NCBI GenBank assembly: GCA_035289505.1 | Contig: DATDWV010000062.1 | Span: 1 to 24,563 of the forward strand | From: Patescibacteria group bacterium | Lineage (GTDB): Bacteria > Patescibacteriota > Patescibacteriia > Buchananbacterales > UBA6539 | Reading direction: 5' to 3' | DNA: 24,563 nt | Shown: positions 5,606-24,032 of the stretch, one piece after another | How the letters are laid out: the number at the start of each line of letters is the position of its first letter | Position numbering within the stretch: position 1 is the stretch's first letter | Notes under the pieces: model-generated | Told to the model about the DNA's origin: nothing | The model's input: the letters and a program-made list of their open reading frames with translations, nothing else | Databases searched by the model: none | Translations under genes and position numbers: made by a program

Positions 5606-7908
5606 GTAAAATTTTTGTCAACATTGCCACTTATAACGAAAAAGAAAATATTGAGCGGTTAATCGTCGCAATTTTTGCTTTAAAAATTAATGATTTGTCG
5701 GTTTTAGTCATTGACGATAATTCGCCTGATGACACCGCCCAAATTGTTGAACAATTGAAAAATCGTTTTTCCAATCTAATGTTAATTGAAAGAGAAAGCA
5801 AACTAGGTTATGGTAGTGCCCAGATTGCTGGGTTTAAAACCGCTTTGGCGTCGGGCGCCGAGGTAATAATTACTATGGATGCTGATCATTCGCATAACCC
5901 AACCATCATTCCGAATTTAATTACCGCTATTAAGGATGGCAACGATGTCGCGATTGGTTCAAGAAAAATTCCCGGTGGTAAAATTGTGGGCTGGCATTGG
6001 TGGCGGCATTTTGCCAGCACCGGGGCAATGCTGACTTCGCAAATATTTTTAGGCATTGCGACTAATGATTTAACGAGCGGCTTTCGCGCTTACCGCCGCC
6101 AAGTTTTAGAAAAAATTGATTTAGAAAAAATCAAAAGCAACGGTTATTCATTTTTGGAGGAACTAATTTATTTAATTGAAAAAATAGGTTTTAAAATTAA
6201 AGAAGTTCCGATTACTTTTACCGATCGCTTATTTGGCAAGTCGAAACTTTCTAAAAGGGAAATTTTAAATTTCTTTTTAAATATTTTTAAAATTAAATTC
6301 AGTGAATTAAAAAAAATCAGGTTTAATTTAGAAAATTTTGTTTATGGGTTGCTGATTTTGTCTTTTTTTATCGGCCTTCGGCACGCTTTTCCGATGCTCA
6401 AAGTAATAAGTGATGAAATGTATTTTGTCGGCGGCGTTTTGCGGGCAATGGAAAATTTCACGATTTTCCCCGGAGCCGGCGATGTGCCCTATGGACTTTT
6501 GACTTACTATCTAAATTATATTTTAATTGCTAAATTTTTAATCCTGTCTTTACCGTTTTTTCAATTTAACTTAGAATCATTAAAATCAAATTTAATTCAA
6601 TCGCCAGAAATTATCTACTTAATCCCCAGAGTTTTAAGCGCGATTTTGGCGATTTTTTATTTGATTATTTTTGCCAAAATTTTTAAAAAAGAATTTAGTG
6701 ACTGGAAAATAAGAATTTATCTTGTCTTAATCCTTTTTACCAACATGCTCACAGTTTTGGTTTTGCGCACCGGCAAAATGTGGGTTTTAAGCATGCTTTT
6801 GACTTTATTATCTTTTTATTATCTTTATCGCGCTTTAAACTATCGTGATCAGCCGGAGTCGTCAGTTTTATCCAGAAGCATTACTTTAAGCATCATTTTT
6901 TCTTTTTTGGCGGTGACTAATTTTATTTTCAACGCGATTTTTTTGATTAATATTCCCATTCTTTTAATATTTTTTTGGTCCAATCAGGGGTTAAGGAAAA
7001 AAATAATCTTTTCAACAATTTTCGGCGTTTTAATTTTTGTTTTAATTACTTTAACGAATTTAGCTGGGATTAAAGAGCTGTTAGTCAATCAATTCACGTA
7101 TTATCGGCCTTTAGGGGAAAACGAAATTTCCGCTCAAAATTTGTCGGTTTTCGCTTCTTTTATAATGTATTTGAAGCGCTTAGTCTTATTTTTTCCGGTT
7201 ATTTTATTAACTTTACTTTTAGCGATTAGCCAAAAAATAAAAAATCAAAAGTTATTGATGATTGCCAGCGCTTATTTTTTGGTCTATTTTTTAATGATTA
7301 GTTTTATCGGCACTTGGTCAGCCCAAATTTATTCTTATATTCATTATTCATTTCCCTTTGCCTTTTTTTTGGTTTTAATAATCAGTAGCCTTGACTTAAA
7401 ATTCAGCAAAATTTTTTATTTCTTGGGATTAATCTCATTAGTTTATTTTATATTTAGCTTATATTATCTTTCTCTTCCGACTACTTACAATGAAGCCGCC
7501 AATTGGATTTTAAAAAATTTAAATCAAAAAGAAACGATTATTATTAATGAAATCAGAAACCTTGATTTGCCGAAAAATAAATCTTCTTATCTTTTAACCG
7601 CGGAAAATTATTGCGCGAGCATTTGCCAAAATGTCATTGCCAATGATTTAAATAAAGAATTTTTGCCTTTAGTGATTGACAAATACAGCAAAGCCGATTG
7701 GCCCAAAGAGGTGGACCAAAAAACCAAAGAAAATTTTGTCATCACGGATAAATTATTGACTGCCTCTGATTTTGAGCTTGAAGCCTCTCTGACCAATCCA
7801 ATTGAAATCGGTTTTAGTGCTGACGGAAAAATGGCGAATTATTTTGATTTTGATTTTTTCAAAATTAAAAATTTTGGTCCCAATATTTATATTTATCGGA
7901 CACTTTGA
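5602..7908 (+). CDS. Fusion of a GT2 polyprenol-phosphate glycosyltransferase (DPM1/Ppm1-like) and a multi-pass GT-C-like membrane domain
   Basis: N-terminal ~235 aa: ATYNEKENI, VIDDNSPD, DxD motif ITMDADHSH (5878-5886), DLTSGFRAYRR, GYSFLEE, EVPITFTDRLFGKSKL. This is followed by many hydrophobic segments, with an acidic DE pair (ISDEMYF, 6412-6417) after the first TM, and a soluble C-terminal tail. Confidence 0.8.
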   Translation: MSKIFVNIATYNEKENIERLIVAIFALKINDLSVLVIDDNSPDDTAQIVEQLKNRFSNLMLIERESKLGYGSAQIAGFKTALASGAEVIITMDADHSHNPTIIPNLITAIKDGNDVAIGSRKIPGGKIVGWHWWRHFASTGAMLTSQIFLGIATNDLTSGFRAYRRQVLEKIDLEKIKSNGYSFLEELIYLIEKIGFKIKEVPITFTDRLFGKSKLSKREILNFFLNIFKIKFSELKKIRFNLENFVYGLLILSFFIGLRHAFPMLKVISDEMYFVGGVLRAMENFTIFPGAGDVPYGLLTYYLNYILIAKFLILSLPFFQFNLESLKSNLIQSPEIIYLIPRVLSAILAIFYLIIFAKIFKKEFSDWKIRIYLVLILFTNMLTVLVLRTGKMWVLSMLLTLLSFYYLYRALNYRDQPESSVLSRSITLSIIFSFLAVTNFIFNAIFLINIPILLIFFWSNQGLRKKIIFSTIFGVLIFVLITLTNLAGIKELLVNQFTYYRPLGENEISAQNLSVFASFIMYLKRLVLFFPVILLTLLLAISQKIKNQKLLMIASAYFLVYFLMISFIGTWSAQIYSYIHYSFPFAFFLVLIISSLDLKFSKIFYFLGLISLVYFIFSLYYLSLPTTYNEAANWILKNLNQKETIIINEIRNLDLPKNKSSYLLTAENYCASICQNVIANDLNKEFLPLVIDKYSKADWPKEVDQKTKENFVITDKLLTASDFELEASLTNPIEIGFSADGKMANYFDFDFFKIKNFGPNIYIYRTL

Positions 7909-10913: not shown

Positions 10914-11906
10914 ATGGATAAAATCTTAGTCACTGGCGGCGCGGGGTTTATCGGTTCGCATGTCACCGATGAATTGATCAAATTAGGCGTTGGAGTCGTG
11001 GTTTTAGACGATTTAAGCGGCGGTTTTAGAGAAAACATAAATCCTCAAGCAAAATTTATTGAAGGCAGCATTAATGATCAGAGTTTAATTGACAAAATAT
11101 TTAAGGAAGAAAAATTTGATTATGTTTTTCATTTAGCCGCTTACGCCGCCGAAGGCTTAAGTCAATTTATCAAACATTTCAATTATGAAAACAATTTGAT
11201 TGGCACGGTTAATTTGATTAACGCTTCAGTCAATAATAACGTGAAATGTTTTGTTTTTACTTCTTCCATTGCCGTTTATGGCGCCGGCCAATTGCCAATG
11301 GCCGAAATAATGAAGCTGGAACCCGAAGATTCATACGGTATCGCCAAATACGCGGTTGAACTTGACTTAAAGGCCAGCCATAAATTGTTTGGTTTGAATT
11401 ACATTATTTTTCGGCCGCATAATGTTTTTGGCGAAAAACAAAATATCGGCGATAAATACCGCAATGTCGTTGGGATATTTATGAATCAAATAATGCAGAA
11501 TCAGCCGATTACGATTTTTGGCGACGGTGAGCAAAAGCGCGCTTTTAGCTATATCGGTGATATCGCGCCAGTGATTGCCCAATCAATTTATAATCAAAAA
11601 GTCTATAATCAAATTTTTAACATTGGCGGCGATGAAATTATCACGGTTAATCAATTGACGGATTTAGTTTTTTCGGCCATGGGTCGGAAAACTGATATTA
11701 ATTATCTGCCGGCGCGGCAAGAAGTAAAATTCGCTTATTCGGATCACGCCAAAGTCAAAGAATTGTTGGGCTATGAAAATAAAATTAAAATTGTCGAGGG
11801 TTTAAAGAAAATGGCCAATTGGGCAAAAGAAGTCGGAGCAAAAAAAAGCAAGGATTTTTCTCAAATTGAGATTACCAAAAATTTGCCGTCAAGCTGGCAG
11901 AAATAA
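10914..11906 (+). CDS. NAD-dependent nucleotide-sugar epimerase/dehydratase (extended SDR, UDP-glucose 4-epimerase-like)
   Basis: TGGAGFIGSH; DDLSGG; HLAAYAAEG; TSSIAVYG; YGIAK (YxxxK); RPHNVFG; IFGDGEQKRAFSYI. Confidence 0.9.
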   Translation: MDKILVTGGAGFIGSHVTDELIKLGVGVVVLDDLSGGFRENINPQAKFIEGSINDQSLIDKIFKEEKFDYVFHLAAYAAEGLSQFIKHFNYENNLIGTVNLINASVNNNVKCFVFTSSIAVYGAGQLPMAEIMKLEPEDSYGIAKYAVELDLKASHKLFGLNYIIFRPHNVFGEKQNIGDKYRNVVGIFMNQIMQNQPITIFGDGEQKRAFSYIGDIAPVIAQSIYNQKVYNQIFNIGGDEIITVNQLTDLVFSAMGRKTDINYLPARQEVKFAYSDHAKVKELLGYENKIKIVEGLKKMANWAKEVGAKKSKDFSQIEITKNLPSSWQK

Positions 11907-11909
11907 TTT

Positions 11910-13076
11910 ATGAAGATTTCGTATTTTGCCAATATCCGTTTGCCCACCGAAAAAGCCCATGGCCGCCAAATTATGAAAATGGCGGAAAGTTTGGCTCAGG
12001 CCGGCGATGAATTGGAGTTAATCATTCCCAGTCGGCAAAATCCGAATTTTCAAAACACTAATCCTTTTCGCTATTATCAAATTAAAGAAACTTTTAAAAT
12101 TAAAAAAATAAATTGTTTTGACCCGGTTTTTCTTTTTGGTTTTCCCGCTGGTTTATATATCAAATTTCAAACTATTTTTTTTATTTTAAGTTTGACGGTT
12201 TATTTACTAATTAATCGAAGCAGACAAGATACCTTTTTTTACACCCGCGACGAGGCTTTATTACCCTTACTTTCAATTTTTTCCAAAAAAATCGTCTGGG
12301 AAGCGCATGCTTTGCCGAAAAAAATAAAATTTTTAAAGCCTTTTTTAAAGCGGGCGGCAAAATTTATCGTTTTAACCCAAAGTATTAAAAAAAATTTAAT
12401 CAGCTTGGGTTTAGCGGAAGAAAAAATTTTAGTTTCGCCTGATGCGGTTGATTTGGAAATTTTTGGCATTAGTCTAGACAAATCTCAAGCCAGAGAACAA
12501 TGGCAATTACCCCAAGATAAAATTATTTTAGGCTATACCGGCACGATTAAAACCAAGGGCATGGATAAAGGTTTAATTGATATTTTTCAGGCTTTAAAAA
12601 TTTTAAGCCAAAAAAGAAATGACTTAATTTTTATCGCCCTGGGCGGATTAGAAAGTGAAATCAGCGAATATCAAAAATTAGCGGAAAATTTTGGCGTGGC
12701 GGATTTTGTGAAATTACTTTCGCCGGTTGAGCAGAATAAATTAGCGGTTTTTCAGCAAGCCTGCGATATTTTACTGATGCCTTTTCCAAAAACCACGCAT
12801 TTTTCTTTTTACATGTCGCCTTTAAAAATGTTTGAATATTTGTCTTCGGGCCGGCCGATTATTGCCACTAATTTGCCAAGTATCAAAGAAATATTGGATA
12901 ATACTAATGCGATTTTGATTAAACCTGGTGATTTTCAAGATTTAGCAGAAAAAATTGAATTATTATTAAATAACCCCTCATTAGCCAATGATTTGGCACA
13001 AAAGGCAAAAACCATTTCATTGAATTACAGTTGGCAGAAAAGAGGAGAAAAAATTTATCAATTCTTATGTGGTTAG
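11910..13076 (+). CDS. Glycosyltransferase family 4 (GT-B)
   Basis: RLPTEKAHGRQIMKM; GYTGT; SPLKMFEYLSSGRPIIATNLPSIKE. Confidence 0.88.
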   Translation: MKISYFANIRLPTEKAHGRQIMKMAESLAQAGDELELIIPSRQNPNFQNTNPFRYYQIKETFKIKKINCFDPVFLFGFPAGLYIKFQTIFFILSLTVYLLINRSRQDTFFYTRDEALLPLLSIFSKKIVWEAHALPKKIKFLKPFLKRAAKFIVLTQSIKKNLISLGLAEEKILVSPDAVDLEIFGISLDKSQAREQWQLPQDKIILGYTGTIKTKGMDKGLIDIFQALKILSQKRNDLIFIALGGLESEISEYQKLAENFGVADFVKLLSPVEQNKLAVFQQACDILLMPFPKTTHFSFYMSPLKMFEYLSSGRPIIATNLPSIKEILDNTNAILIKPGDFQDLAEKIELLLNNPSLANDLAQKAKTISLNYSWQKRGEKIYQFLCG

Positions 13077-15934
13077 AAAAATTATTTTTAAAAATTAAAT
13101 TTCGGCTGGTTCAGCGCCATCGCTTGATTTTAATTATCATTTTATTTTTGATTTTAATTTTTTTCGCCGGCGTACCGCTGCTTTCATCAGAGTTAGGCAG
13201 TGCGGAGAAACGCGCTCAATGGCTTCGATCTTATCCCGTTTTAACTAAAATCATTCCTTTATATTGGGAAATAAGAAAAATTACTGATATTGTTTATTTG
13301 CCTTATTTTTTCAAAAAAGATCAAGTGCCGACCTATGAACTAATTATTCCATCTGATTCCAGAAAGAAAATGGACGACAGCCTGCCTAAAGGTTTTTCCA
13401 ATGTTATTTATACTAACAAAACATGGGCGCCGGCTGAATTTAAGTTTAACGGCAAAACTTATAATATTGAGGTTAGATATCGCGGACAAAATGCTGTTCA
13501 TTGGAATGCGCCAAAAAAATCATATCTGATAAAATTTGACAAAGACGATTTATTTAACGGTGCGAGGGAATTAAGTTTTATTATTGCTGATGATCGGTTT
13601 TTTGTCTTAGAAGAACTAAATAATTATCGGGCTGACAAATTAAGCCTTTTGCGCCCCAAAAGTGGTTATGCCAATTTGAAAATTAACGGCAAAAATAACG
13701 GTTTATATTTCACCATTGAAGGCTGGGCTGAAGAGATGCTGGCCAAATGGGAAGTTCCTGATCAGACCAATTTTTATGAGTTAGCCGAGCAAAATACAGA
13801 TAGTTTGGTAGCGGCTGATTATACCATTTGGGATAATCTTGACCGATGGGACCAGCTGGTGCGAGATCAGCGTTTTAATTACGGTCATTTTACGGAAATT
13901 TTTAAACTCCTTAGTTTGCTGAATCATGCGACGGACGAGGAATTTTACCAATCAATTTTTAGTTTAATTGATAAAGATAATTTTTATGCCTGGCAAATTC
14001 ATCAGGAATTGATTCACTCCAACCATCAAAATAATGACGTTAAATTATTATTTGACAATACGTCGGGAAAATTCTTTTTTGTCCCTTGGGACGTAGGTAA
14101 TACAAATCCTAGCAGTGAAATTGAGCTGTATAGCCGTTTGGCCAAGAGAATATTCACTAATCCGGTTTATTGGCATGAAAAAGATAAAATATTATATGAC
14201 TATGCCAATAACAAGGATAATTTAAAGGATGATTTGGATTTTTATGATAAAACCTATAATTTGATTAAGCCGTCGCTTTATAAAGATCGGATGAAAATTT
14301 ATACCAATCGTTGGGCCGATTCATTGATCATTAGCCGCCGCCAGGCTCTGATTGATGCTTTTGATAAAATCAAAGATCGCTACAAAAATAATTTAGCCTT
14401 TATTGACGTAGGAATAATTGATGATAACGCTAAAAAATTTGGCTTGAACAGCATCTTGGCTTTTATTGACGTTAATACCAAAAGTTACAGCGCTTTATGG
14501 TTAAAGGCCGTGGAAGCAGAGCTGGCTAACGGTCAAGCTCTGTCAGATTATAAGTTGTATTACGATGCTAATTCTAACCAAGAGCTTGATAATAATGATA
14601 AATTAGTAAAAGATTACAAAGATATTATTCTTTACACTCATAGAACCTTTGATTCAACGACGGAGGGCGGAAAATTGGAGTTAACCAAATATCGGTTTTA
14701 TCTAGTTAGCGATAAAATCAGCAGTGAAGATTTTTCTGACCAATTAAATGATTTCAAGGTCAATTTACAAAATGGTATTACCGGTGACGACATTAAAAAA
14801 AAGGAAATTAACATCAAAATAATCAACCAAGCGGTTTTTAAATATTTTGATAATATTTCTGATCTTAGCGGATTTGAGCGAGAAAATCCTTTTTTCGTGG
14901 TTGATCGACAGGCTAAAAGAATAGTTTTACCGCCCGGGACATATCAATTCAACAAAAATGTAATAGTACCAAAAGGTTTTACTTTAGATATAAACCCGGG
15001 CGTCACCATTTTAATGGCGCCAAGCGTATCAATTGTTAGCTACAGCAAGGTAATTGCCCAAGGTACGGCGGCCGCACCAATTAATATTTTTCCTCAAATT
15101 CCAAACCAGCCGTGGGGAACCTTTGGTGTTTTAAATACCGGCAACCAATTGAATATTTTTGAAAATTTTAATGTTGTTGGCGGCTCAGAAGCCTATGTTA
15201 ATGGCGTCTATATGTCGGGAATGGTTTCGGTCTATCATTCTGACATCAGCGTTAGAAATTCTCAATTTTCTAACGCCGCGGCTGACGATGGAATAAACGT
15301 CAAGTATGGCAAAGCTGCATTAACCAATAATCGGTTTATGAATAATTCAGCTGATGCTATTGATTACGATTTTATTAAGCAGGGACAGATTATCAGCAGT
15401 CAATTTATTAATAATGGCAATGATGGCGTTGATTTAAGCGGCTCGACTGTTTTGATCGCCAATAATCATTTTCAAAACTCCGGTGACAAATGCGTCAGCG
15501 TTGGCGAGAAGAGTTTAGAGACGGTAATTTACAACAATATTTTGGATGGTTGTAAAATTGGAGTAGAAATCAAAGATTTGTCTGACATATTGATTATCAA
15601 TAATGTGATAATTAATAATGAGATTGGGCTTAATGCCTATCAGAAAAAACCGGTCTTCGGCGGCGGTAAGGCCAAAATTTACAATAGTATCATTTGGGAT
15701 AATCAAAACGACGTTCAGACCGACCCACAGTCAGTTATTGCTATATTCAATAGTAATATCAACCGTGATGATTTGGATAATAATAATTTTAATACTCATC
15801 CTGAATTTGTTAATTTATCGGCCGGGGATTATCGGGTAGATTTGCCCCAGTACAAAAACGGCGGAGACAAGGGTGTTTTGGAGAAATATTTGGACCTGAA
15901 GCTTGATCAAGCGCCAGTTGGTTTAATAAAATAG
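13067..15934 (+). CDS. CotH-family kinase-like protein with an N-terminal membrane anchor and a C-terminal right-handed parallel beta-helix
   Basis: ATG 13067 is preferred over TTG 13031. Basic N-terminus plus LILIIILFLILIFFAGVPLL anchor. CotH motifs: VRYRG...KKSYLIKF, INGKNNGLYFTIE, FDNTSGKFFFVPWD. Beta-helix repeats (DDGINVK, ADAIDYD, NDGVDLSG, GDKCVSVGE, IIINNVIINNEIG) from ~14921. Confidence 0.82.
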   Translation: MWLEKLFLKIKFRLVQRHRLILIIILFLILIFFAGVPLLSSELGSAEKRAQWLRSYPVLTKIIPLYWEIRKITDIVYLPYFFKKDQVPTYELIIPSDSRKKMDDSLPKGFSNVIYTNKTWAPAEFKFNGKTYNIEVRYRGQNAVHWNAPKKSYLIKFDKDDLFNGARELSFIIADDRFFVLEELNNYRADKLSLLRPKSGYANLKINGKNNGLYFTIEGWAEEMLAKWEVPDQTNFYELAEQNTDSLVAADYTIWDNLDRWDQLVRDQRFNYGHFTEIFKLLSLLNHATDEEFYQSIFSLIDKDNFYAWQIHQELIHSNHQNNDVKLLFDNTSGKFFFVPWDVGNTNPSSEIELYSRLAKRIFTNPVYWHEKDKILYDYANNKDNLKDDLDFYDKTYNLIKPSLYKDRMKIYTNRWADSLIISRRQALIDAFDKIKDRYKNNLAFIDVGIIDDNAKKFGLNSILAFIDVNTKSYSALWLKAVEAELANGQALSDYKLYYDANSNQELDNNDKLVKDYKDIILYTHRTFDSTTEGGKLELTKYRFYLVSDKISSEDFSDQLNDFKVNLQNGITGDDIKKKEINIKIINQAVFKYFDNISDLSGFERENPFFVVDRQAKRIVLPPGTYQFNKNVIVPKGFTLDINPGVTILMAPSVSIVSYSKVIAQGTAAAPINIFPQIPNQPWGTFGVLNTGNQLNIFENFNVVGGSEAYVNGVYMSGMVSVYHSDISVRNSQFSNAAADDGINVKYGKAALTNNRFMNNSADAIDYDFIKQGQIISSQFINNGNDGVDLSGSTVLIANNHFQNSGDKCVSVGEKSLETVIYNNILDGCKIGVEIKDLSDILIINNVIINNEIGLNAYQKKPVFGGGKAKIYNSIIWDNQNDVQTDPQSVIAIFNSNINRDDLDNNNFNTHPEFVNLSAGDYRVDLPQYKNGGDKGVLEKYLDLKLDQAPVGLIK

Positions 15935-15937
15935 AAT

Positions 15938-17674
15938 ATGAATTTTAAGCGGTTTATAAAAAAAATAGATTATAAACTTTTTATTTATTCGGTGATATTT
16001 TTTATCGTATTGACTGTGGGGCTTTTATTCGTTTATCAGAATCGATTGACTTTGGTAAATAATAAAATTATTTACAATAAATACACAAGAGCTTTTTTGC
16101 CCGCTTATCATTTTATTAATCAGTTGATTTATAAATTACCTAATGTAGTATATTTGCCCCTGATGCGCAGTCATGTCGGCATTCCAGAATATAAAATTAT
16201 TATCGATCAAAAAAATTTAGAATTTTTAAATGACAACTTGCCTAAGCCGATATTTGTTGACGGGGTGCCGACTGGTTATGAAGAATTAGCCGATAAGTAC
16301 AAGCAGTCAGTTCCGGCCAAATTTGTTTACGAGGGAGAGGAGTATAATGTTCGCGTTGGTTACCGAGGGGATCATGAAAATCATTGGGCTTATGATGAAA
16401 AATCTTGGGAAGTAGAATTTGACAAAGACAAATTATTTAATGGAATTAAGGTGCTAAAACTAATTATTCCTTCAGGGAGAGATTATTTTTCTGAATATTT
16501 AAACAGCTATCGAGCTAAAAAATTTGGCTTAAAAATAACTGAGGCGAGTTTTGCTAAATTATCAGTCAACGATATCAGATACGGTGTGTATTATCAGTTT
16601 GAAGACTGGTCTAAGGAATTTTTAGAAAAAAATGAGCTACCCTCAGACGCTAATTTGTACGTGACCGATGACGCCGTGATTAATTTAGATGATTTAAATT
16701 CCGCGTATAACGATTCAGTATTTTGGAAAAAGAAAGCCGAAGATGCAACGTTTAATTTTGATAATTATAGCGAGATCAATTTTTTAATTAAAGCGATGGA
16801 CCAACCAAATTTTTCAGAAATTGTGCCTGACATTATTGATTTAGACAGCCTTTACTCTTGGCATACGCTTTCTATGTTAGCTGGCAGCCAGCATCAAACC
16901 GGTCGGGGGAATTCTCGTTTATACTTTAATAATACGAGCGGTAAGTTTGAGTTTATTCCCTGGGATATTAAGATAAATAATCTCACGGGTAGCCAAATAA
17001 TCGATAATCTTTTATTGACCAAAATTTTTAGCGATCCCGCTCGCCAGCTTGAACTCAATCAATTCCTTTGGCAGTATGTAAAAAATCCAGATAACCTGGC
17101 TGATGATTTAGCGGCCTATGATGAAAAATATAATCAATTAAAACCGGCTTTTTATCTTGATTGGAGAAAATTCCATAATAATTTTCGGTTTGACTCAGAG
17201 GTTAGAATTATTCGGAAGTTATACGAGGATAACTTTAATCATTTAGCGAATTTATTCAATCAAGACGCCTCAAAAGTTGAAGTCTTTTTTAATCCAAATA
17301 AATTGTTGTTGACCATTGATATAATGGTTGATAATTTTAGCGGTTTAAACGTGATCGGGATAATTTTGCCTCCAAAAACGCAAGGTCAGATTGAACTTTT
17401 TTATGATTCAGATCAAAATGGCGTTTTGTCAACTGCCGACAATGCATTAGCCGGGAAATTTGCTACTGCCGGAAATACTCAGGAGTTATCGGATTTTAGC
17501 CAATCCATTTATAGTCAAAGACAATACGATCCAGACGGCAAAATTAGCCGTTTGGTTCCTACGCGCCATTCTTTTTTTATTAAGTTTAATCGGCAACAAG
17601 CGGCAGACTTTGATCTTAATAAGTTAAAAGTTCAATTAAATAATGCAATCACCGGAAAATCATTAAATTATTAG
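15938..17674 (+). CDS. CotH-family kinase-like protein with an N-terminal membrane anchor (paralog of the upstream gene, no beta-helix)
   Basis: MNFKRFIKK plus LFIYSVIFFIVLTVGLLFV anchor. Motifs: VGYRG...EKSWEVEF, VNDIRYGVYYQFE, RLYFNNTSGKFEFIPWD. Confidence 0.82.
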   Translation: MNFKRFIKKIDYKLFIYSVIFFIVLTVGLLFVYQNRLTLVNNKIIYNKYTRAFLPAYHFINQLIYKLPNVVYLPLMRSHVGIPEYKIIIDQKNLEFLNDNLPKPIFVDGVPTGYEELADKYKQSVPAKFVYEGEEYNVRVGYRGDHENHWAYDEKSWEVEFDKDKLFNGIKVLKLIIPSGRDYFSEYLNSYRAKKFGLKITEASFAKLSVNDIRYGVYYQFEDWSKEFLEKNELPSDANLYVTDDAVINLDDLNSAYNDSVFWKKKAEDATFNFDNYSEINFLIKAMDQPNFSEIVPDIIDLDSLYSWHTLSMLAGSQHQTGRGNSRLYFNNTSGKFEFIPWDIKINNLTGSQIIDNLLLTKIFSDPARQLELNQFLWQYVKNPDNLADDLAAYDEKYNQLKPAFYLDWRKFHNNFRFDSEVRIIRKLYEDNFNHLANLFNQDASKVEVFFNPNKLLLTIDIMVDNFSGLNVIGIILPPKTQGQIELFYDSDQNGVLSTADNALAGKFATAGNTQELSDFSQSIYSQRQYDPDGKISRLVPTRHSFFIKFNRQQAADFDLNKLKVQLNNAITGKSLNY

Positions 17675-17721
17675 AGGGATTACTCGGTTTCATTTTCAGC
17701 TTATTATCTTTTTTATAAGAC

Positions 17722-17750
17722 TTTACAATTATTCCGTTAAATGGTAATCT
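17722..17750 (+). promoter_or_regulatory. Candidate sigma70-type promoter for the VTC-DUF4956-deacetylase-GNAT block
   Basis: TTTACA (17722-17727), 17-bp spacer, TAATCT (17745-17750) preceded by TG-n (extended -10), in the first of only two long intergenic gaps in the window. Confidence 0.4.
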
Positions 17751-17799
17751 ATATCCATTAAAATCCGGCTATTGATTTTATTATCAATTTTAATTATTA

Positions 17800-17843
17800 A
17801 TATTAATCTATTAATTTAGATTAAGCCCAGTTTAGATTAATAT
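17800..17843. repeat. Three copies of TAGATTAA (one inverted, two direct) immediately upstream of and overlapping the VTC start codon
   Basis: ATATTAATCTA (17800-17810) is the reverse complement of TAGATTAATAT (17833-17843). Its inner 8 nt also pair with TAGATTAA at 17817-17824. TTTAGATTAA is directly repeated at 17815 and 17831. Confidence 0.7.
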
Positions 17844-18594
17844 GGCAAAACCAGCATTACATTTTCAAAGATTTGAATTTAAATACTATTTACCAAAAAA
17901 TACCGCTAATAAATTAATTCCGGCTTTATTAAGCCATATGAGCTGGGATCCTTATATTAAAAATTCCAGTTATGATTTTTATCAGGTTAATAGTTTATAT
18001 TTTGATAGCCCGAATTATGGTTGTTTTTGGGACAAAGAAAGCGGTTTAGCCGATCGGAAAAAATTAAGACTGCGTTTTTATAACCAATTGTCCGATAGCG
18101 AAAGTCCGATTTTTTTGGAAGTTAAAAGGAAAAAAGACGCATTGGTTATTAAAGACCGAATTCCGTTGGAATTAAAAGATGCGGCCAACGGCGTTTTAGA
18201 TAGTAAATTGTCCAGTTTGGCAAAGCAGAATGAAAGCAATGATTTTTTAAAAGAATTGATTTGGTTTAAAAAGAGTAATTCTTTAAGACCAAAACTTTTC
18301 GTCACTTATAAACGCCAGGCTTTAATCGGCAAATTGGATAAGAAATTTCGGGTCACTTTTGATTATGACGTTAAAACCCAACTAATTAGTAGCTTGGTTC
18401 ATCCATTAAATAAATTAAAAGAAGTTTATCCCGAAGGCGTGGTTTTGGAATTAAAATATAATAACATTTTGCCCTTTTGGTTTCAAGAAATTATTCAGAA
18501 ATATCAATTGCAACGTTTAGCTTATTCAAAATATTGTAATTCATTACGCCGGGTTTTGCCCCAGCTTGATGATCATAATTATTCAGTAATTTAA
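17842..18594 (+). CDS. VTC-domain (polyphosphate polymerase domain, CYTH/triphosphate-tunnel fold) protein
   Basis: RFEFKY (ExK), SLYFDS, KLRLRFY, FLEVKRK, YKRQA, RVTFD, VLELKY and YSKY: the motif series of the Vtc4-like catalytic domain, without SPX or TM domains. Confidence 0.9.
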   Translation: MAKPALHFQRFEFKYYLPKNTANKLIPALLSHMSWDPYIKNSSYDFYQVNSLYFDSPNYGCFWDKESGLADRKKLRLRFYNQLSDSESPIFLEVKRKKDALVIKDRIPLELKDAANGVLDSKLSSLAKQNESNDFLKELIWFKKSNSLRPKLFVTYKRQALIGKLDKKFRVTFDYDVKTQLISSLVHPLNKLKEVYPEGVVLELKYNNILPFWFQEIIQKYQLQRLAYSKYCNSLRRVLPQLDDHNYSVI

Positions 18595-18603
18595 TAAAAT
18601 TTT

Positions 18604-19290
18604 ATGTTTGAAACATTATTCCAAGTGACTCCGAATACTGGGTCATTAAGTTTAATTCACATTCTCATTACTTTAGTTTTGTCTTTAATCCTTTCTTTAA
18701 TTATCGCTTGGATTTATAAAACCACTCACCGCGGCATTTCTTATTCCCAATCTTTTGTTTTTACCTTGGTCTTAATTGGGGTTTTAATTTCAGTGATTAT
18801 GATGATTATTGGCAATAGCTTAGCCATTGCTTTTGGCGCCTTTGGCGCTTTTTCTTTAATTCGTTTTCGCACCGCAATTAAAGACGCCAAAGATATCGCT
18901 TTTATTTTGTTAGTCGTGGCTATGGGTTTATCCGTTGGCACGAGAAATTATTTAATCGCCGTTTTAACCACAATTTTTTGCGCCTCGGTAATTTATATTT
19001 TAACTAAGATTAATTTTGGTTCAATTAGAAAATACGACTATTTATTGAGTTTTTTGGCGGATTCGCAAAAATTTAATGTGGAAAATCTGCGTTCAGTTTT
19101 TGCCGAATTTTTGAAATATGACAATTTATTGAATGTTTCTGCCAAAGAAAACGGCCGGATTTTAAATTACACTTTTAACATTAAATTTATTAAAGCGGCG
19201 GAAATTGAAAAATTTATTAATAAGTTAAATCAATTAGAAGGAATTTCCGACATTGATGTCATCAGCGCCAAAAATGACATTGAATATTAA
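18604..19290 (+). CDS. DUF4956 family membrane protein
   Basis: Several TM helices with GNSLAIAFGAFGAFSLIRFRTAIKDAKD and MGLSVG, followed by a soluble C-terminal domain with an ACT-like alternating pattern; adjacent to the VTC gene. Confidence 0.88.
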   Translation: MFETLFQVTPNTGSLSLIHILITLVLSLILSLIIAWIYKTTHRGISYSQSFVFTLVLIGVLISVIMMIIGNSLAIAFGAFGAFSLIRFRTAIKDAKDIAFILLVVAMGLSVGTRNYLIAVLTTIFCASVIYILTKINFGSIRKYDYLLSFLADSQKFNVENLRSVFAEFLKYDNLLNVSAKENGRILNYTFNIKFIKAAEIEKFINKLNQLEGISDIDVISAKNDIEY

Positions 19291-20072
19291 TGGGCTTTAT
19301 TAAAAATTTTATTTATTTCTTAATTATTATTCTGGACAGGATATGGCCCAAGAAAGCCATTCCTGTTTTGTTATATCATTCAATTAGTGATGATGGTAGC
19401 CGTTTATCGGTTAATAAGAAAAATTTTGAAAAACAGTTGAATTTTTTAAGTAAAAATGGTTACCAGTCGATGGGGCCAGATGAACTTTATCAATGCTTGA
19501 ACCAGGGCCAGGTGCCAAATAAAAAAATTATTATTACCTTTGATGATGGTTATCAGGATAATTACACGCAAGCTCTTCCAATATTAAAAAAGTATAATTT
19601 TTCGGCAATAATTTTTATCGCGACAAAATTTATTGGTCAAAAAGCCAGTTTTGCGACTGATAAAATTAATCAGGATAAAAAAATTTTAGACTTTAACGAA
19701 ATCAAAGATTTAGCCGAAGAGGGGATAATTATTAGCAATCACTTTCATTCTCATTTGCCCTTGACTGGATTAAATAAAGAACAAATTACTAATGAATATC
19801 ACACCGCTCAGAATATTTTAAAAAATTTTAATCATCGGAATATTCATCCGGAAATTGTCGCCTATCCGAAAAATCGCGTCAACCAAGAGATTATAAATTG
19901 TTTAAAGAACCTTAACGTCTTACTTGGCTTCAGCGGCAGCAATAAAGCGATTAATAAAAGTGACTTTCGTTTAAATTTAAGCCGCATTGAAATTTATCAA
20001 TCAGATTCCATCTTAAAATTTTCCGCCAAATTAACGGCTTATTATTCTCTTTTCAAAATTAAAAAATTATGA
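19290..20072 (+). CDS. Polysaccharide deacetylase (CE4/NodB domain, IcaB/PgaB-like)
   Basis: LLYHSI, ITFDDGY (motif 1), NHFHSH (metal-binding His pair), AYP, LSRIEI; TAATG overlap with DUF4956. Confidence 0.88.
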   Translation: MGFIKNFIYFLIIILDRIWPKKAIPVLLYHSISDDGSRLSVNKKNFEKQLNFLSKNGYQSMGPDELYQCLNQGQVPNKKIIITFDDGYQDNYTQALPILKKYNFSAIIFIATKFIGQKASFATDKINQDKKILDFNEIKDLAEEGIIISNHFHSHLPLTGLNKEQITNEYHTAQNILKNFNHRNIHPEIVAYPKNRVNQEIINCLKNLNVLLGFSGSNKAINKSDFRLNLSRIEIYQSDSILKFSAKLTAYYSLFKIKKL

Positions 20073-20812
20073 TTTTTGAAAAGCGGGTGCTTTGGTTTAA
20101 AACGATCAGATATGCTTTAGAACCCTGGCCCGATCTAGAAAAATTAAAAAAAAATTACGCGGCAATTTATTTGGTTAGTTATGAAAAAAAAGATTTGCCC
20201 GGTTTTTCTGTTAAAATTAAGGAAACGCCGATTATTTATCTCAACAGAAAAATTGAGGAGGTTTTCAATAGTTTTAATGAAACCACCAGAAATGAAATCA
20301 GGCGAACTTTTGACGATAAAATTCCCGGCTTAAAAATTATTGCTGACGATCAGAATTTAGACGCTAATTATCAATTAAGTAAAAAGTTTGAATACCAGCA
20401 GGGGAGAGTGCCGGAAAAAATTTCAATGTATCGCGGCTGCCGCTTATTTTCCGCTTATTTAGACGGGGAGATAATTTCCAGCATCATTTGTTACGATAAT
20501 AATCAAATTTTGCGCGCCAAAGCGATTTGTTCTAAAAGATTAACTGTTGAAGACAGGGAGACTTACAAAATTATTTCTTATGCCACGCGCCGCTTGATTT
20601 ATGAAGCTTGCCAGTGGGGGATTAAAAATAATTATCAATGTTTTGATTTAGGCTCAGTTAATTTTGCCAAGGAAAATTTAGCCCAGTTTAAATTAAGTTT
20701 TACCAAGGATTTAGTTACAGAATACACGTATACTTATAAAAGCCAATGGTTTGAACTTTTGGCCAGTGGGGTTTTTATAAAAAAAATACTAAAAAAGCTG
20801 CTTAAGCTTTAG
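20069..20812 (+). CDS. FemAB/GNAT-like acyl- or aminoacyl-transferase domain protein
   Basis: IYLNRKIEEVFNSFNETTRNEIRR, YEACQWGIKNNYQCFDLGSV and LAQFKLSF resemble the FemAB-type/BioF2-like GNAT pattern; ATGA overlap with the upstream gene. Confidence 0.6.
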   Translation: MIFEKRVLWFKTIRYALEPWPDLEKLKKNYAAIYLVSYEKKDLPGFSVKIKETPIIYLNRKIEEVFNSFNETTRNEIRRTFDDKIPGLKIIADDQNLDANYQLSKKFEYQQGRVPEKISMYRGCRLFSAYLDGEIISSIICYDNNQILRAKAICSKRLTVEDRETYKIISYATRRLIYEACQWGIKNNYQCFDLGSVNFAKENLAQFKLSFTKDLVTEYTYTYKSQWFELLASGVFIKKILKKLLKL

Positions 20813-20882: not shown

Positions 20883-20922
20883 TTTGATATCTATTGACAC
20901 CTAGTGATACTTAAAGATATAA
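20883..20922 (+). repeat. Four imperfect direct repeats with a 10-bp period over the promoter
   Basis: tttGAtAtct / attGAcAcct / agtGAtActt / aaaGAtAtaa at 20883, 20893, 20903 and 20913. Confidence 0.6.
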
Positions 20923-20923
20923 T
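20894..20923 (+). promoter_or_regulatory. Consensus sigma70 promoter upstream of the HTH gene
   Basis: Exact TTGACA (20894-20899) and exact TATAAT (20918-20923) with an 18-bp spacer. A second TATAAT lies at 20962-20967. Confidence 0.75.
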
Positions 20924-20978: not shown

Positions 20979-21227
20979 ATGGATCAAGAAATTAAGCCAA
21001 ATAGCGTTTATACCACGACTGAAGCTCAGGAGTTGCTTAAGGTCAGCGGCAGTACGATGAAACGGATGCTTAAAAAAGGCTTGCTCCGGGCCAATAAAGT
21101 CGGTCATCAATACCGGATTTTAGGCAAAGAGATTTTACGGCTAGTTTCGCCGGAAGTTGAGCAAAAGGCGGTAAAATCTTATCTGAAGCTGAAAGAAAAA
21201 ATCGTTGATAAAATTAATCAGTGGTAA
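20979..21227 (+). CDS. Small MerR-superfamily/excisionase-like helix-turn-helix DNA-binding protein (HTH_17 type)
   Basis: YTTTEAQELLKVSGSTMKRMLKKGLLRANKVGHQYRI matches the 'lT..EaA..L.vs..T..r.i..G.l.a.kvG..wRI' pattern; C-terminal amphipathic helix. Confidence 0.85.
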   Translation: MDQEIKPNSVYTTTEAQELLKVSGSTMKRMLKKGLLRANKVGHQYRILGKEILRLVSPEVEQKAVKSYLKLKEKIVDKINQW

Positions 21228-21239
21228 GGCGTTAAATTT

Positions 21240-23027
21240 ATGAATTTTGCCAACAATCGACTTTTTAAAATTGTCTACCTTGCCCAAAAAGCATTTTTTG
21301 AATATAAATGGCAAATTGTTTTATTAACTGTTTTAGGTTTAATTGGGGCGAGTCTTGAAGGCATCGGTGTTAACGCTTTGATTCCTTTATTTTCTTTTGC
21401 CATAGAAGACGGTCAGACCAGCAATAATTTAATTTCTCAATTAACAAAAGGTTTTTTTGATTTTTTTAATTTAAATTTTAACGTCAGCTTTTTATTATTT
21501 TTTATCATCACTCTTTTTATTTTAAAAGCTTTAATTAATTTATTAATCGCTTTTATCAAAATCAATATTACTTCTGATTATGAAGCAAAAACTAGAAGTC
21601 GGCTTTTTACTAAAATTTTAAATTCTTCTTGGCCCCACCTGCTTAAACAAAAATCGGGTCATTTGGAGACAATCTTAATGCTTGATGTGCCGGCCAGTTC
21701 AAGCCTTTTAGAGCAAATCAGCGGCGCGATAATTGTTTTTGGCAGTTTATTAATTTATATTATTGTTGCTTTAAATATTTCTTTGCCCATTACTTTAATT
21801 ACGATTATTTTGGGTGCGATTTTATTTTTGACAATTAAGCCAGTCATTTATAAAACAAAAAAGGTCGCTTATGAGCGAACCCAAGCTAATAAAGAAATTG
21901 GCCATCATATTAGTGAAAATTTGAGCGGCATTAAAGCTGTTAAAGTTTTGGCAGCTGAGATGGGGATTATTACTAGAGCCAATGATTATTTTGAGAAATT
22001 AAAAAAATTATGGGTGAGAAGTCTGATGTTAAAGACTTTAAGTGCCGTTTTTATTGAGCCTTTAAGCTTAATTTTTATTTGTTTGGTTTTTATCTTTAAT
22101 TATAGCTCGCCGAATTTTAACTTGGCGGTTCTAATCGCTATTGTTTATTTAATTCACCGGATTTTTATTTATTTTCAGCAATTGCAGCGGAATTTACAGA
22201 CAATTTTAGATTTATTCCCTCACTTGCAAAGTATCATCAAATATGAGGGACAAGCGATAGATAATTTTGAGCGAAACGGCGGGGATAAAAAGTTTGCATT
22301 TAACCAAAATCTAAAATTTGAAAATGTTAATTTTGCTTATTTTGAAAATAAACCAATTTTAAATAATCTTAATTTGAAAATTAATAAAGGTGAAATGATT
22401 GGTTTGATCGGCCCGTCGGGCTCCGGTAAAACCACTTTAGTTGATTTAATTTTGCGGCTTTTTCAGCCAAGTGCCGGAAAAATTTATTTAGACGGAATTG
22501 ATATTTCCGAAATTAATTTAAAAGAATGGCGCGATCATGTCGGCTATGTTTCCCAAGAATTATTTTTAATTAATGACACCGTGGCTAATAATATCAGATT
22601 TTATAACAAAATTTTAATCGATCAAGATATCGCTGAAGCGGCAAAAATGGCTAATATTTATGAATTTATTCAGACTTTGCCGAATAAATTTGAAACCATA
22701 ATCGGCGAACGAGGAATTTTAATTTCCGCCGGTCAAAGACAGCGCATTGTTATTGCCCGAATTTTAGCCCGAAAACCGCAGCTATTGATTTTAGACGAAG
22801 CGACTTCGGCGCTGGATAATAAATCTGAAGCCAAAATTCAAAAAGTCATTGAAAATCTGAAAGGTAAAATCACGGTTTTGATTATTGCCCATCGTTTATC
22901 CACAATTACGGACGCGGATAAATTATTGGTTTTGGATAATGGTGGAATTATTGAGCAAGGCACGCCAGCTGATCTTTTGAAAGATAAAAACACTTATTTT
23001 TATAAGGTTTATAATATTACCGCTTAG
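21240..23027 (+). CDS. ABC exporter with fused TMD-NBD (MsbA/PglK-like; candidate lipid-linked glycan flippase)
   Basis: N-terminal TM helices; Walker A GPSGSGKT; Q-loop VSQE; signature ISAGQRQR; Walker B LILDEATSALD; IAHRLS. The flippase role is inferred from context. Confidence 0.88.
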   Translation: MNFANNRLFKIVYLAQKAFFEYKWQIVLLTVLGLIGASLEGIGVNALIPLFSFAIEDGQTSNNLISQLTKGFFDFFNLNFNVSFLLFFIITLFILKALINLLIAFIKINITSDYEAKTRSRLFTKILNSSWPHLLKQKSGHLETILMLDVPASSSLLEQISGAIIVFGSLLIYIIVALNISLPITLITIILGAILFLTIKPVIYKTKKVAYERTQANKEIGHHISENLSGIKAVKVLAAEMGIITRANDYFEKLKKLWVRSLMLKTLSAVFIEPLSLIFICLVFIFNYSSPNFNLAVLIAIVYLIHRIFIYFQQLQRNLQTILDLFPHLQSIIKYEGQAIDNFERNGGDKKFAFNQNLKFENVNFAYFENKPILNNLNLKINKGEMIGLIGPSGSGKTTLVDLILRLFQPSAGKIYLDGIDISEINLKEWRDHVGYVSQELFLINDTVANNIRFYNKILIDQDIAEAAKMANIYEFIQTLPNKFETIIGERGILISAGQRQRIVIARILARKPQLLILDEATSALDNKSEAKIQKVIENLKGKITVLIIAHRLSTITDADKLLVLDNGGIIEQGTPADLLKDKNTYFYKVYNITA

Positions 23028-23048
23028 AAAATAATTATAAAATATATT

Positions 23049-24032
23049 ATGTCAATTTTAGACCACAAAGCAATTTTAGTCACCGGCGGAACCGGTTCTT
23101 TCGGGAAAAATTTTATTAGATATCTTTTGGCAAATACCGCTGCCAAAAAAGTTATCGTTTTCAGCCGTGATGAATTAAAGCAGTCACAAATGGCTCATGA
23201 ATTTAATGATGAAAGACTGCGCTTTTTTATCGGCGACGTCCGGGATTTGCCACGATTGCAGCGGGCTTTTGCCGGTGTGGATATTGTCGTTCACGCCGCG
23301 GCCTTAAAACACGTGCCAATTCTGGAATATAATCCTTACGAAGCCGTTAAAACTAATATTTTAGGCAGCCAAAATGTGATTGAGGCGGGGATTGACCAAA
23401 AAGTCCAAAAAATCCTTTTGGTCTCAACGGATAAAGCGGTTCAGCCGATTAATCTGTACGGTTCAACCAAGCTTTGCGCGGAAAAATTGTTTATTGCCGG
23501 CAATTCGTACGCGGCCGGCCAGACTAAATTTAGCGCTGTTCGTTACGGCAATGTTTTAGGCAGTCGCGGCAGTATTGTTGAATCATTGTTAAACCATAAC
23601 GGCCAAGATGAAGTAAAAATTACCGACGAAAATATGACTCGCTTTTGGATTACTCTGCCGCAGAGTTTTTCGTTAGTGATGTTTGCCTTAGAACAAATGG
23701 CTGGTGGAGAAATTTTTGTGCCTAAAATTCCGTCAATGAAATTAGTTGATTTGTTTGACGCGGTGGTGCCGGAATACAAAAGAAAAGTCATTGGTATTCG
23801 GCCGGGTGAAAAAATGCATGAAACTTTATTAACCGAAGATGAATCACGGCACGCTTATGAATTAGAAAAATATTATGTAGTTTTGCCCGAGTTTGAATTA
23901 GGACGAATTTTGGAGGAGAAATATAAAAAATTGGGAAAAACTTTGCCGCTTAGATTCCGCTATAGCAGTGACACTAATGCTGAATGGCTTACTAAAAATC
24001 AGCTTAATTTATTGATTAATAATAAAAAGTGA
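23049..24032 (+). CDS. pseB: UDP-N-acetylglucosamine 4,6-dehydratase (inverting), PseB/FlaA1 family
   Basis: TGGTGSFG, FSRDELKQ, HAAALKHVP..EYNP.EAVKTNILG, STDKAV.PINLYGSTK, RYGNVLGSRGS, TRFWITL, GIRPGEKMHE. Confidence 0.88.
   Translation: MSILDHKAILVTGGTGSFGKNFIRYLLANTAAKKVIVFSRDELKQSQMAHEFNDERLRFFIGDVRDLPRLQRAFAGVDIVVHAAALKHVPILEYNPYEAVKTNILGSQNVIEAGIDQKVQKILLVSTDKAVQPINLYGSTKLCAEKLFIAGNSYAAGQTKFSAVRYGNVLGSRGSIVESLLNHNGQDEVKITDENMTRFWITLPQSFSLVMFALEQMAGGEIFVPKIPSMKLVDLFDAVVPEYKRKVIGIRPGEKMHETLLTEDESRHAYELEKYYVVLPEFELGRILEEKYKKLGKTLPLRFRYSSDTNAEWLTKNQLNLLINNKK

Follow-up and report, generated by a model that had tools for sequence, protein, structure and literature searches.

A CotH–VTC–DUF4956 gene module in a surface-glycan locus of Patescibacteria and its tentative link to polyphosphate export

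We analysed a 24,563-nt window of DNA, one whole 24.5-kb contig (DATDWV010000062.1) of a 0.75-Mb, 83%-complete Patescibacteria genome, in which four consecutive genes encoding two CotH-like proteins (CotH1 and CotH2), a VTC-domain protein and a DUF4956 membrane protein are arranged in this order at positions 13031/13067–19290 within a surface-glycan locus (Table 1). CotH, VTC and DUF4956 are nearly obligate partners in the phylum, and the VTC protein, as judged by alignment, retains the full polyphosphate-polymerase active site of yeast Vtc4. We propose, with a probability of about one in three, that VTC makes polyphosphate (polyP), that DUF4956 exports it and that the CotH proteins phospho-modify a glycan or glycoprotein. 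The four genes, their plus-strand positions and their family assignments had been put forward in an earlier note made from the letters of the window (the original prediction), and gene calls and Pfam matches, each above its curated cut-off for all module genes, agree with it. Pfam likewise confirmed the glycosyltransferase (GT) genes on one side and the deacetylase, ABC exporter and pseB genes on the other.

The same prediction cited no earlier description, whereas the gene set entered the literature in 2019/2020 in the form of accessory genes of Pel loci. Whitfield et al. (2020, PMC7112168; bioRxiv 768473) described cotH, DUF4956, DUF4832 and a gene for a polyphosphate polymerase as accessory genes that directly adjoin the pel operons of Gram-positive bacteria. 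For the Streptococcus intermedius genes SIR_1594/1593/1592, the predicted products are a CotH-FN3 protein that is secreted, a VTC-like protein of the cytoplasm and a protein with four transmembrane (TM) helices and an ACT domain (PMC12345266), and a streptococcal CotH homologue was reported in a secretome. The triad as such is therefore already published; new here are (i) the Patescibacteria host, (ii) the non-Pel locus, (iii) the duplicated CotH, (iv) the beta-helix fusion and (v) the His active site. In our literature search, no publication put polyP forward as phosphate donor of an exported CotH.

Co-occurrence and synteny of the three families

We searched 301 genomes of the phylum, all of 0.6–1.3 Mb, with profile hidden Markov models (HMMs) and found VTC in 18, DUF4956 in 15 and CotH in 12. 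DUF4956 is accompanied by VTC in each of its 15 genomes, and each of the 12 CotH genomes contains both VTC and DUF4956 (Fisher p about 1e-22 and 5e-19, not phylogeny-corrected); the three cases of VTC only consist of fragments at contig edges or of a weak, partial match. The triad spans 2.9–5.5 kb in 11 genomes of the phylum, its carriers are spread over 12 different families, and the CotH-CotH-VTC-DUF4956 order of positions 13031–19290 recurs in one genome (G287). The original prediction had stated that the three families co-occur in other bacteria and had named a co-occurrence no better than chance as a refutation; the statement was right, as these counts, the plasmids described below and two publications (PMC7112168, PMC12345266) show, and the association is not at chance level. 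Among 14 control genomes, all three families were found in Bacteroides thetaiotaomicron, Corynebacterium glutamicum and Methanosarcina acetivorans, and the Bacillus subtilis genome gave a CotH match and none for VTC or DUF4956. CotH of B. subtilis works in the mother-cell cytoplasm.

The nearest protein homologues come from organisms named Patescibacteria, Buchananbacteria, Kuenenbacteria and Komeilibacteria. In the closest relatives the gene order is GT, beta-helix CotH, (CotH), VTC, DUF4956, (CE4), followed by HTH_17, ABC and PseB, and the sugar genes upstream of the module vary from one relative to the other. With the module and the HTH-ABC-PseB genes constant and the upstream sugar genes variable, the module falls on the conserved side of a glycan locus that otherwise varies; judged by gene order, it is part of the conserved assembly/export portion, which places the triad in the conserved core of variable surface-glycan loci of Candidate Phyla Radiation (CPR) bacteria. 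Elsewhere in the Patescibacteria, the module is found on some contigs among TagF-like glycerophosphotransferases, NeuB, CMP-sugar synthetase and Wzy_C, and on others among GT4s, epimerases, aminotransferases and methyltransferases. TagF-like glycerophosphotransferase and SAM methyltransferase genes lie directly 5′ of the beta-helix CotH in two relatives (L016 5045–8138 and 8146–9963; L035 6435–7115). Such neighbours are a hint, from gene content, at phosphate-containing or methyl-capped glycans in the relatives' loci.

Neighbourhoods in other phyla were drawn from plasmid tblastn; randomly looked-up DUF4956 representatives mostly lie on 1–3 kb contigs without context. On a Pseudobutyrivibrio xylanivorans plasmid, CotH-VTC-DUF4956 stands in a non-Pel locus of exopolysaccharide type with GT61, GT2, GT4 and acyl- and pyruvyl-transferases, and on a Planococcus plasmid VTC-DUF4956-CotH adjoins HEAT-repeat and GT genes. 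Clostridium perfringens NELoc-2 contains VTC, CotH, HEAT-repeat, GT and deacetylase genes. A Pel locus is ruled out for the window, as PelG gave no match in the source genome (83% complete) and the window genes are GT4/GT1/GT2 genes, sugar-nucleotide enzymes and an ABC exporter. The present locus and the other non-Pel contexts together therefore contradict a published claim that the synteny is confined to Pel loci (PMC12345266), and the triad is not restricted to such loci.

The module nevertheless resembles the Gram-positive pel accessory genes in that three adjacent, co-oriented families lie beside polysaccharide biosynthesis genes and a CE4 deacetylase gene, and in the predictions of a secreted CotH, a VTC located in the cytoplasm and, for DUF4956, several TM helices ending in an ACT-like tail. 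It differs in lying within a GT4/GT2-rich ABC-exporter locus rather than contiguous with pelDEA(DA)FG, in lacking a DUF4832 hydrolase gene and in having two tandem CotH paralogs, one fused to a beta-helix and one with a beta-sandwich instead of FN3. Furthermore, His stands here for the catalytic Asp; in the streptococcal protein the catalytic residues are reportedly retained.

Two Bacteroidota plasmids, from Hymenobacter volaticus (L037 7905–9988) and Chondrinema litorale (L038 7902–9592), have DUF4956 followed directly by a TolC-family gene or an HlyD-family adaptor gene, an arrangement that fits an inner-membrane export role for DUF4956. Moreover, one metagenome contig (JGI 3300072015) has the order PPDK_N, a gene of unknown type, a weak Porin_O_P match, CotH (921 aa), a small open reading frame, VTC and DUF4956. 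Porin_O_P denotes a phosphate-selective porin; a phosphate- or pyrophosphate-type porin next to these genes would be in line with the export of anions through an outer membrane, although the Pfam match is weak.

Predicted properties of the module proteins

The VTC protein is a single domain in which Pfam and hydropathy detected neither SPX nor a fused C-terminal TM domain; with no hydrophobic segment, in agreement with the missing TM domain of the original prediction, it is predicted to be cytoplasmic. A profile of 12 VTC relatives matches yeast Vtc4 chains (E 1.4e-19). Residues K14, R76, R78, K95 and Y156 align to Vtc4 K200, R264, R266, K281 and Y359, and R158, E203, S229 and K230 to Vtc4 R361, E426, S457 and K458; among the 12 relatives K14 is nearly invariant and the eight other catalytic-residue equivalents are invariant. 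In Vtc4 the listed residues bind triphosphate/Mn2+ and are needed for polyP synthesis, and the K458 position is Ile/Leu in the catalytically inactive Vtc2/3 (bioRxiv 10.1101/2023.01.27.525886). The alignments thus make the protein a candidate Vtc4-like triphosphate-tunnel polyphosphate polymerase. PPK1 (PF02503) and PPK2 (PF03976) gave no match in the 83%-complete 0.75-Mb source genome, and VTC is therefore the only candidate polyP synthase seen. The likeness to the yeast VTC complex (Vtc4/Vtc3 or Vtc2/Vtc1; 3G3Q, 7YTJ, 8I6V) comprises the catalytic tunnel domain with its triphosphate- and Mn-binding residues and, by analogy, the idea of a cytoplasmic polymerase coupled to a membrane partner. 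Unlike the yeast proteins, the protein described here has no SPX and no fused 3-TM domain; its putative partner is a separate 5-TM MgtC-like protein, and the direction of transport would be out of the cell, whereas in yeast it is into the vacuole.

The AlphaFold2 (AF2) model of the DUF4956 protein (pLDDT 89) has five helices (17–41, 49–69, 73–89, 95–112 and 116–135), consistent with the small multi-TM protein of the original prediction, and a C-terminus modelled as beta-alpha-beta-beta-alpha-beta, an ACT-like domain. Foldseek matched the C-terminal domain to ACT domains, including those of Mycobacterium tuberculosis and Pseudomonas aeruginosa MgtC (fold matches to MgtC domains: 2LQJ 0.57, 7QA5 0.53), and found nothing similar to the TM part in the PDB. 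Sequence matches to MgtC/SapB stay below the cut-offs (Pfam, 15.7 bits against 31.4, E 0.02; NCBIfam PRK09977, 21.3 bits against 214, E 1.7e-4). As modelled, the architecture is MgtC-like, a 5-TM part that leads into an ACT-like domain on the cytoplasmic side; DUF4956 is set apart from MgtC/SapB by its own RFRTAIKD signature and by its partners VTC, CotH and HlyD/TolC. The most conserved element of DUF4956 is RFRTAIK, in which RFRxxxK is invariant or near-invariant in alignments of 14 and 53 sequences, and the model predicts it at the cytoplasmic end of TM3. Because of the Lys/Arg distribution, we infer that the N-terminus is outside and that the ACT-like domain and RFRTAIK are inside. The DUF4956 family comprises 5,652 clusters at 50% identity, and the best 150 representatives are all stand-alone proteins of about 225–235 aa.

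CotH (PF08757) scores 50.7 and 70.9 bits in the two CotH proteins against a gathering cut-off of 23.8, covering profile positions 1–220 of 322. The structural fold comparison was made on the CotH2 model (AF2, pLDDT 85.5), for which the top Foldseek match is B. cereus CotH 5jd9 (target-normalised TM 0.79, E 5e-18); the assignment of CotH1 is by Pfam. The start of CotH1 is ambiguous, either TTG 13031, which has no obvious Shine-Dalgarno sequence, or ATG 13067, which has AGAGGAG (13041–13047) 19 nt on its 5′ side, and the basic N-terminus and anchor are kept with either start. Because each CotH protein has a single hydrophobic N-terminal segment preceded by net positive charge, both are predicted to be type-II anchored with the catalytic domain outside, as originally proposed; such an anchor, with positive charge in front, is shared by the 14 module-linked CotH-like proteins collected from the phylum. 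The beta-helix of CotH1, an architecture (CotH plus beta-helix) shared by its Patescibacteria homologues, belongs to a fold typical of extracytoplasmic carbohydrate-binding or -processing proteins, and the modelled beta-sandwich of CotH2 has weak Foldseek matches to CBM29/CBM32 modules (E ~1e-2). Both domains fit an extracytoplasmic, carbohydrate-directed role.

In MAFFT alignments with a B. cereus CotH fragment and 30 relatives, His332 of CotH1 sits in the column of the canonical catalytic Asp, an Asp fills the Asn column, and D354 is the metal-binding Asp of the PWD motif. In CotH2, His319 replaces B. subtilis Asp228 and Asp343 is the equivalent of Asp251; both D228Q and D251A are kinase-dead in B. 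subtilis CotH (PMC7821199). A canonical Asp-type CotH kinase is ruled out by the His in the catalytic Asp column of both paralogs; Asp is kept in two shorter Patescibacteria CotHs and in the Bacillota triad CotHs. Within the subfamily, H319 and D343 are invariant and N325 is near-invariant, and the phosphate-binding RG/KKS motifs, the Asn and the PWD Asp (D251 equivalent) are kept. This invariant or near-invariant His/Asn/Asp set looks like the pattern of a selected active site, not of a decayed one, and a whole CotH-fold clade with an invariant His for the catalytic Asp bears on the real role of these 'kinases'.

Comparison with the Bacillus CotH spore-coat Ser/Thr kinase (5JD9/5JDA) shows a common Pfam family, conserved RG/KKS motifs and PWD Asp and, for CotH2, a common fold and the metal-binding Asn. 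The Bacillus protein is soluble in the mother cell, whereas the proteins described here are predicted to be exported and membrane-anchored, have His for Asp228 and extra carbohydrate-type C-terminal domains, and stand in a glycan locus, always with VTC and DUF4956, both of which are unmatched in the B. subtilis control genome.

Proposed polyphosphate export and rival explanations

In the mechanism that we propose, VTC would polymerise polyP from ATP at the membrane, and a DUF4956 oligomer would carry the chain outward, as the TM ring of yeast VTC does. The ABC exporter would flip the locus glycan before its modification by CotH, and the exported CotH-fold enzymes would use the phosphoanhydride supply to phosphorylate or phospho-modify the locus glycan or a glycoprotein, with the His that replaces the catalytic Asp acting as base or phospho-acceptor. 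This polyP-export reading is supported by (i) the obligate partnership of the three families, (ii) the intact Vtc4 active site, (iii) the predicted export of every module-linked CotH, (iv) the absence of PPK1/PPK2 matches, (v) the linkage of DUF4956 to HlyD/TolC and (vi) the B. subtilis genome with CotH and neither VTC nor DUF4956. In a stronger form, which we hold to be rather improbable, VTC and DUF4956 would be the polyP synthase-translocase of an ultra-small cell without PPK, and the polyP passed through the membrane would power a distinct clade of exported His-active-site CotH phosphotransferases acting on the surface glycan, possibly via phospho-His; extracytoplasmic chemistry would thereby draw its energy from a source other than ATP.

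Two elements of the original prediction stand in part. DUF4956 as the membrane partner of VTC gains from the co-occurrence in 15 of 15 genomes and from its start 9 nt past the VTC stop and loses from its MgtC-like character, and it is unrelated to the VTC TM domain; 'CotH-like kinases' holds for the family (by Pfam) and for the fold (of the CotH2 model) and not for the canonical catalytic Asp, which is replaced by His in both proteins.

Several observations weigh against polyP export. His occupies the catalytic Asp column (+/-1 residue) in both paralogs and in 27 of the 31 aligned Patescibacteria sequences, and CotH1 and CotH2, lacking the canonical catalytic Asp, could be pseudo-enzymes; the term 'kinase' is therefore itself inferred. 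Their topology derives from hydropathy and the positive-inside rule, not from a dedicated predictor. We know of no kinase of protein-kinase-like fold that uses polyP, and neither DUF4956 nor the MgtC family is known to form a pore or to have transport activity. The 3-TM membrane domain of VTC has no relation to DUF4956, and the 150 best DUF4956 representatives include no VTC-DUF4956 fusion. On the Hymenobacter and Chondrinema plasmids the HMMs matched neither VTC nor CotH within 8 kb of DUF4956, and the cargo of DUF4956 beside HlyD/TolC therefore need not be polyP. A literature search found no assay of any bacterial VTC-domain protein. Finally, deletion of CotH or DUF4956 in S. intermedius reduces aggregation and shifts Pel levels in opposite directions, and deletion of the VTC gene has no reported aggregation phenotype (PMC12345266), which argues, for that phenotype, against a simple linear pathway.

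Much of this evidence can be read differently if polyP stays inside the cell. VTC would then make or hydrolyse cytoplasmic polyP or triphosphate, DUF4956 would be a sensor or regulator that links, through its ACT domain, phosphate, Mg2+ or energy status to glycan production, and the His-variant CotHs would serve outside as scaffolds that bind glycan or as enzymes other than kinases. MgtC, which DUF4956 resembles in the TM region and in the ACT-like C-terminus, regulates ATP synthase and phosphate homeostasis and is not known as a transporter, and the replacement of the catalytic Asp in both CotH paralogs, the silent VTC deletion and the opposite effects of the DUF4956 and CotH deletions on Pel agree with such a role. 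The authors of the S. intermedius preprint also suggest that polyP may remain cytoplasmic. However, this explanation accounts neither for an exported CotH that never occurs without VTC and DUF4956 in 301 genomes, nor for DUF4956 beside HlyD/TolC export parts in diderms, and the (near-)invariant His, Asn and metal-binding Asp of CotH form the pattern of a selected active site; we regard it as doubtful, and as somewhat less probable than polyP export. We consider it unlikely that polyP is itself the product, a surface or extracellular polyanion extruded by VTC and DUF4956 that the CotH/beta-helix proteins bind, trim or attach. This alternative, also raised in the original prediction, draws on the intact VTC active site, the yeast precedent of synthesis coupled to translocation, the DUF4956-HlyD/TolC linkage in diderms and the one contig with a weak Porin_O_P match beside CotH-VTC-DUF4956, but the conserved kinase-fold His/Asn/Asp exceeds the needs of a binding role, and Pfam detected no known polyP-binding domain such as CHAD in the module.

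The CotHs might also be ordinary ATP-dependent Ser/Thr protein kinases of the B. subtilis CotH type that modify surface or host proteins and are supplied with ATP from lysed cells or the host, their link to VTC and DUF4956 being regulatory or historical. The authors of the Pel studies favour a re-purposed Ser kinase for CotH, and such a kinase would agree with the fold of CotH2 (TM 0.79 to 5jd9), with the conserved metal-binding Asp and with the RG and KKS motifs for phosphate binding. Against it stand the His in place of the catalytic Asp, the strict dependence on VTC and DUF4956, which it leaves unexplained, and the beta-helix, the CBM-like module and the glycan-locus context, which point to carbohydrate rather than protein substrates. 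We also know of no steady ATP supply outside the membrane, and we judge this explanation very unlikely. Chance or an annotation artefact, that is, unrelated neighbours on one contig, has a negligible probability. The source genome is indeed a fragmented metagenome-assembled genome (122 contigs, 83% completeness, 5% contamination), but 10 further genomes of the phylum share the arrangement, as do independent metagenome contigs and Bacillota plasmids, and all Pfam matches lie above curated cut-offs; the co-occurrence and synteny data rule out a chance juxtaposition.

Protein-kinase-like folds that phosphorylate a sugar in a pathway of surface or secreted glycans are found in eukaryotic Fam20B and POMK and in the E. 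coli O9a kinase-methyltransferase WbdD. The methyltransferase genes that flank the module in relatives recall, by analogy, phospho-methyl capping of the WbdD type. Fam20B, POMK and WbdD use ATP in an ATP-containing compartment, whereas the catalytic domains described here are predicted to lie in an ATP-free one. If the proposed mechanism is true, it would answer how bacteria perform phosphoryl transfer on the outward side of the membrane, where ATP is lacking. It would further be the first bacterial route for coupled polyP synthesis and export, and functions would be assigned to two large uncharacterised families, the bacterial VTC-domain proteins and DUF4956 (>5,600 clusters).

Layout of the locus and flanking genes

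Table 1 Features of the CotH–VTC–DUF4956 module and its immediate surroundings (window coordinates)
Feature	Position	Strand	Evidence
GT4 glycosyltransferase immediately 5′ of CotH1	11910..13076	+	Pfam Glycos_transf_1 E 4e-20
CotH1, 967 aa from TTG 13031	13031..15934	+	Pfam CotH aa 148–364, E 2.4e-13; Beta_helix/NosD aa 719–892
CotH1 predicted signal-anchor, aa 32–50	13124..13180	+	Hydropathy; net charge +8 in front
CotH1 catalytic-loop region, His332 through PWD Asp354	14024..14092	+	MAFFT alignments
CotH1 beta-helix, NosD/pectate-lyase-like	15185..15706	+	Pfam PF13229 E 1.3e-9, PF05048 E 4.7e-6
CotH2, 578 aa, C-terminal beta-sandwich	15938..17674	+	Pfam CotH E 1.8e-19
CotH2 predicted signal-anchor, aa 14–32	15977..16033	+	Hydropathy, net charge +4 in front; AF2 helix aa 12–34
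CotH2 catalytic loop: His319, Asn325, Asp343 (PWD)	16892..16966	+	Alignments
CotH2 C-terminal beta-sandwich, aa 446–569, weakly CBM-like	17273..17644	+	AF2 secondary structure
AT-rich spacer, 167 nt, between CotH2 and VTC	17675..17841	+	
Soluble VTC-domain protein, 250 aa	17842..18594	+	Pfam VTC E 1.2e-46, 159.7 bits
DUF4956 membrane protein, 228 aa	18604..19290	+	Pfam DUF4956 E 1.4e-13
DUF4956 RFRTAIK motif: R87, F88, R89, K93	18862..18882	+	14- and 53-sequence alignments
CE4 polysaccharide deacetylase, PgaB/IcaB-like	19290..20072	+	Pfam Polysacc_deac_1 E 1e-22; NCBIfam PgaB/IcaB partial matches
247-aa protein, last gene of the module-containing run	20069..20812	+	No family match
HTH_17 regulator, MsbA/PglK/HepA-like ABC exporter, PseB-like dehydratase	20979..24032	+	Pfam, NCBIfam

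Every listed gene of interest, including the four module genes, lies on the plus strand. Upstream of the module are genes for a UDP-glucose dehydrogenase, a GDP-mannose dehydratase, an epimerase, seven GT4/GT1 proteins and one GT2 protein with ~10 TM helices; downstream are those for the CE4 deacetylase, the 247-aa protein, the HTH_17 regulator, the ABC exporter, the PseB-like dehydratase and a NUDIX protein. The genes are closely packed. The GT4 gene extends 10 nt into CotH1 as counted from its ATG start (gap of −10 nt), and the gaps that follow are 3 nt (CotH1 to CotH2), 167 nt (CotH2 to VTC), 9 nt (VTC to DUF4956), −1 nt (DUF4956 to CE4) and −4 nt (CE4 to the next gene), so that the CE4 reading frame overlaps both its neighbours, the DUF4956 stop and the 247-aa protein gene.

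A scan of the module for promoters and terminators remained at background level, with no significant call in the spacer at 17675–17841, except for a perfect sigma-70 consensus promoter (20894–20923; TTGACA, 18 nt, TATAAT; 12/12) in the 166-nt gap before the HTH_17 gene. Because of this background level, operon boundaries are drawn from the gaps alone. The consensus promoter, as read from its sequence, marks HTH-ABC-PseB-NUDIX as a separate transcription unit. An internal promoter or a leader that serves VTC-DUF4956-CE4 may lie in the spacer on the 5′ side of VTC; this spacer measures only 25 nt (11743 to 11769) in the closest relative, L035, which is 64% identical.

Several flanking genes recur with the module. 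By BLAST, homologues of the GT4 at 11910..13076 adjoin it in relatives L022, L024 and L027, and the HTH_17-ABC(-PseB) genes recur on its 3′ side in L027, L035 and L036. The CE4 deacetylase, probably extracytoplasmic in view of its hydrophobic N-terminus, is also present in L035. Pfam and NCBIfam searches gave no match for the 247-aa protein, and L035 has a 247-aa gene without Pfam match at the same position. Further upstream in the window, a 768-aa protein (5602–7908) joins a GT2 domain resembling polyprenyl-phosphate-sugar synthases to ~10 TM helices; its GT2 domain has NCBIfam matches to dolichyl-P hexose transferase, ArnC and PgfS, and the protein may be a fusion of GT2 and GT-C type.

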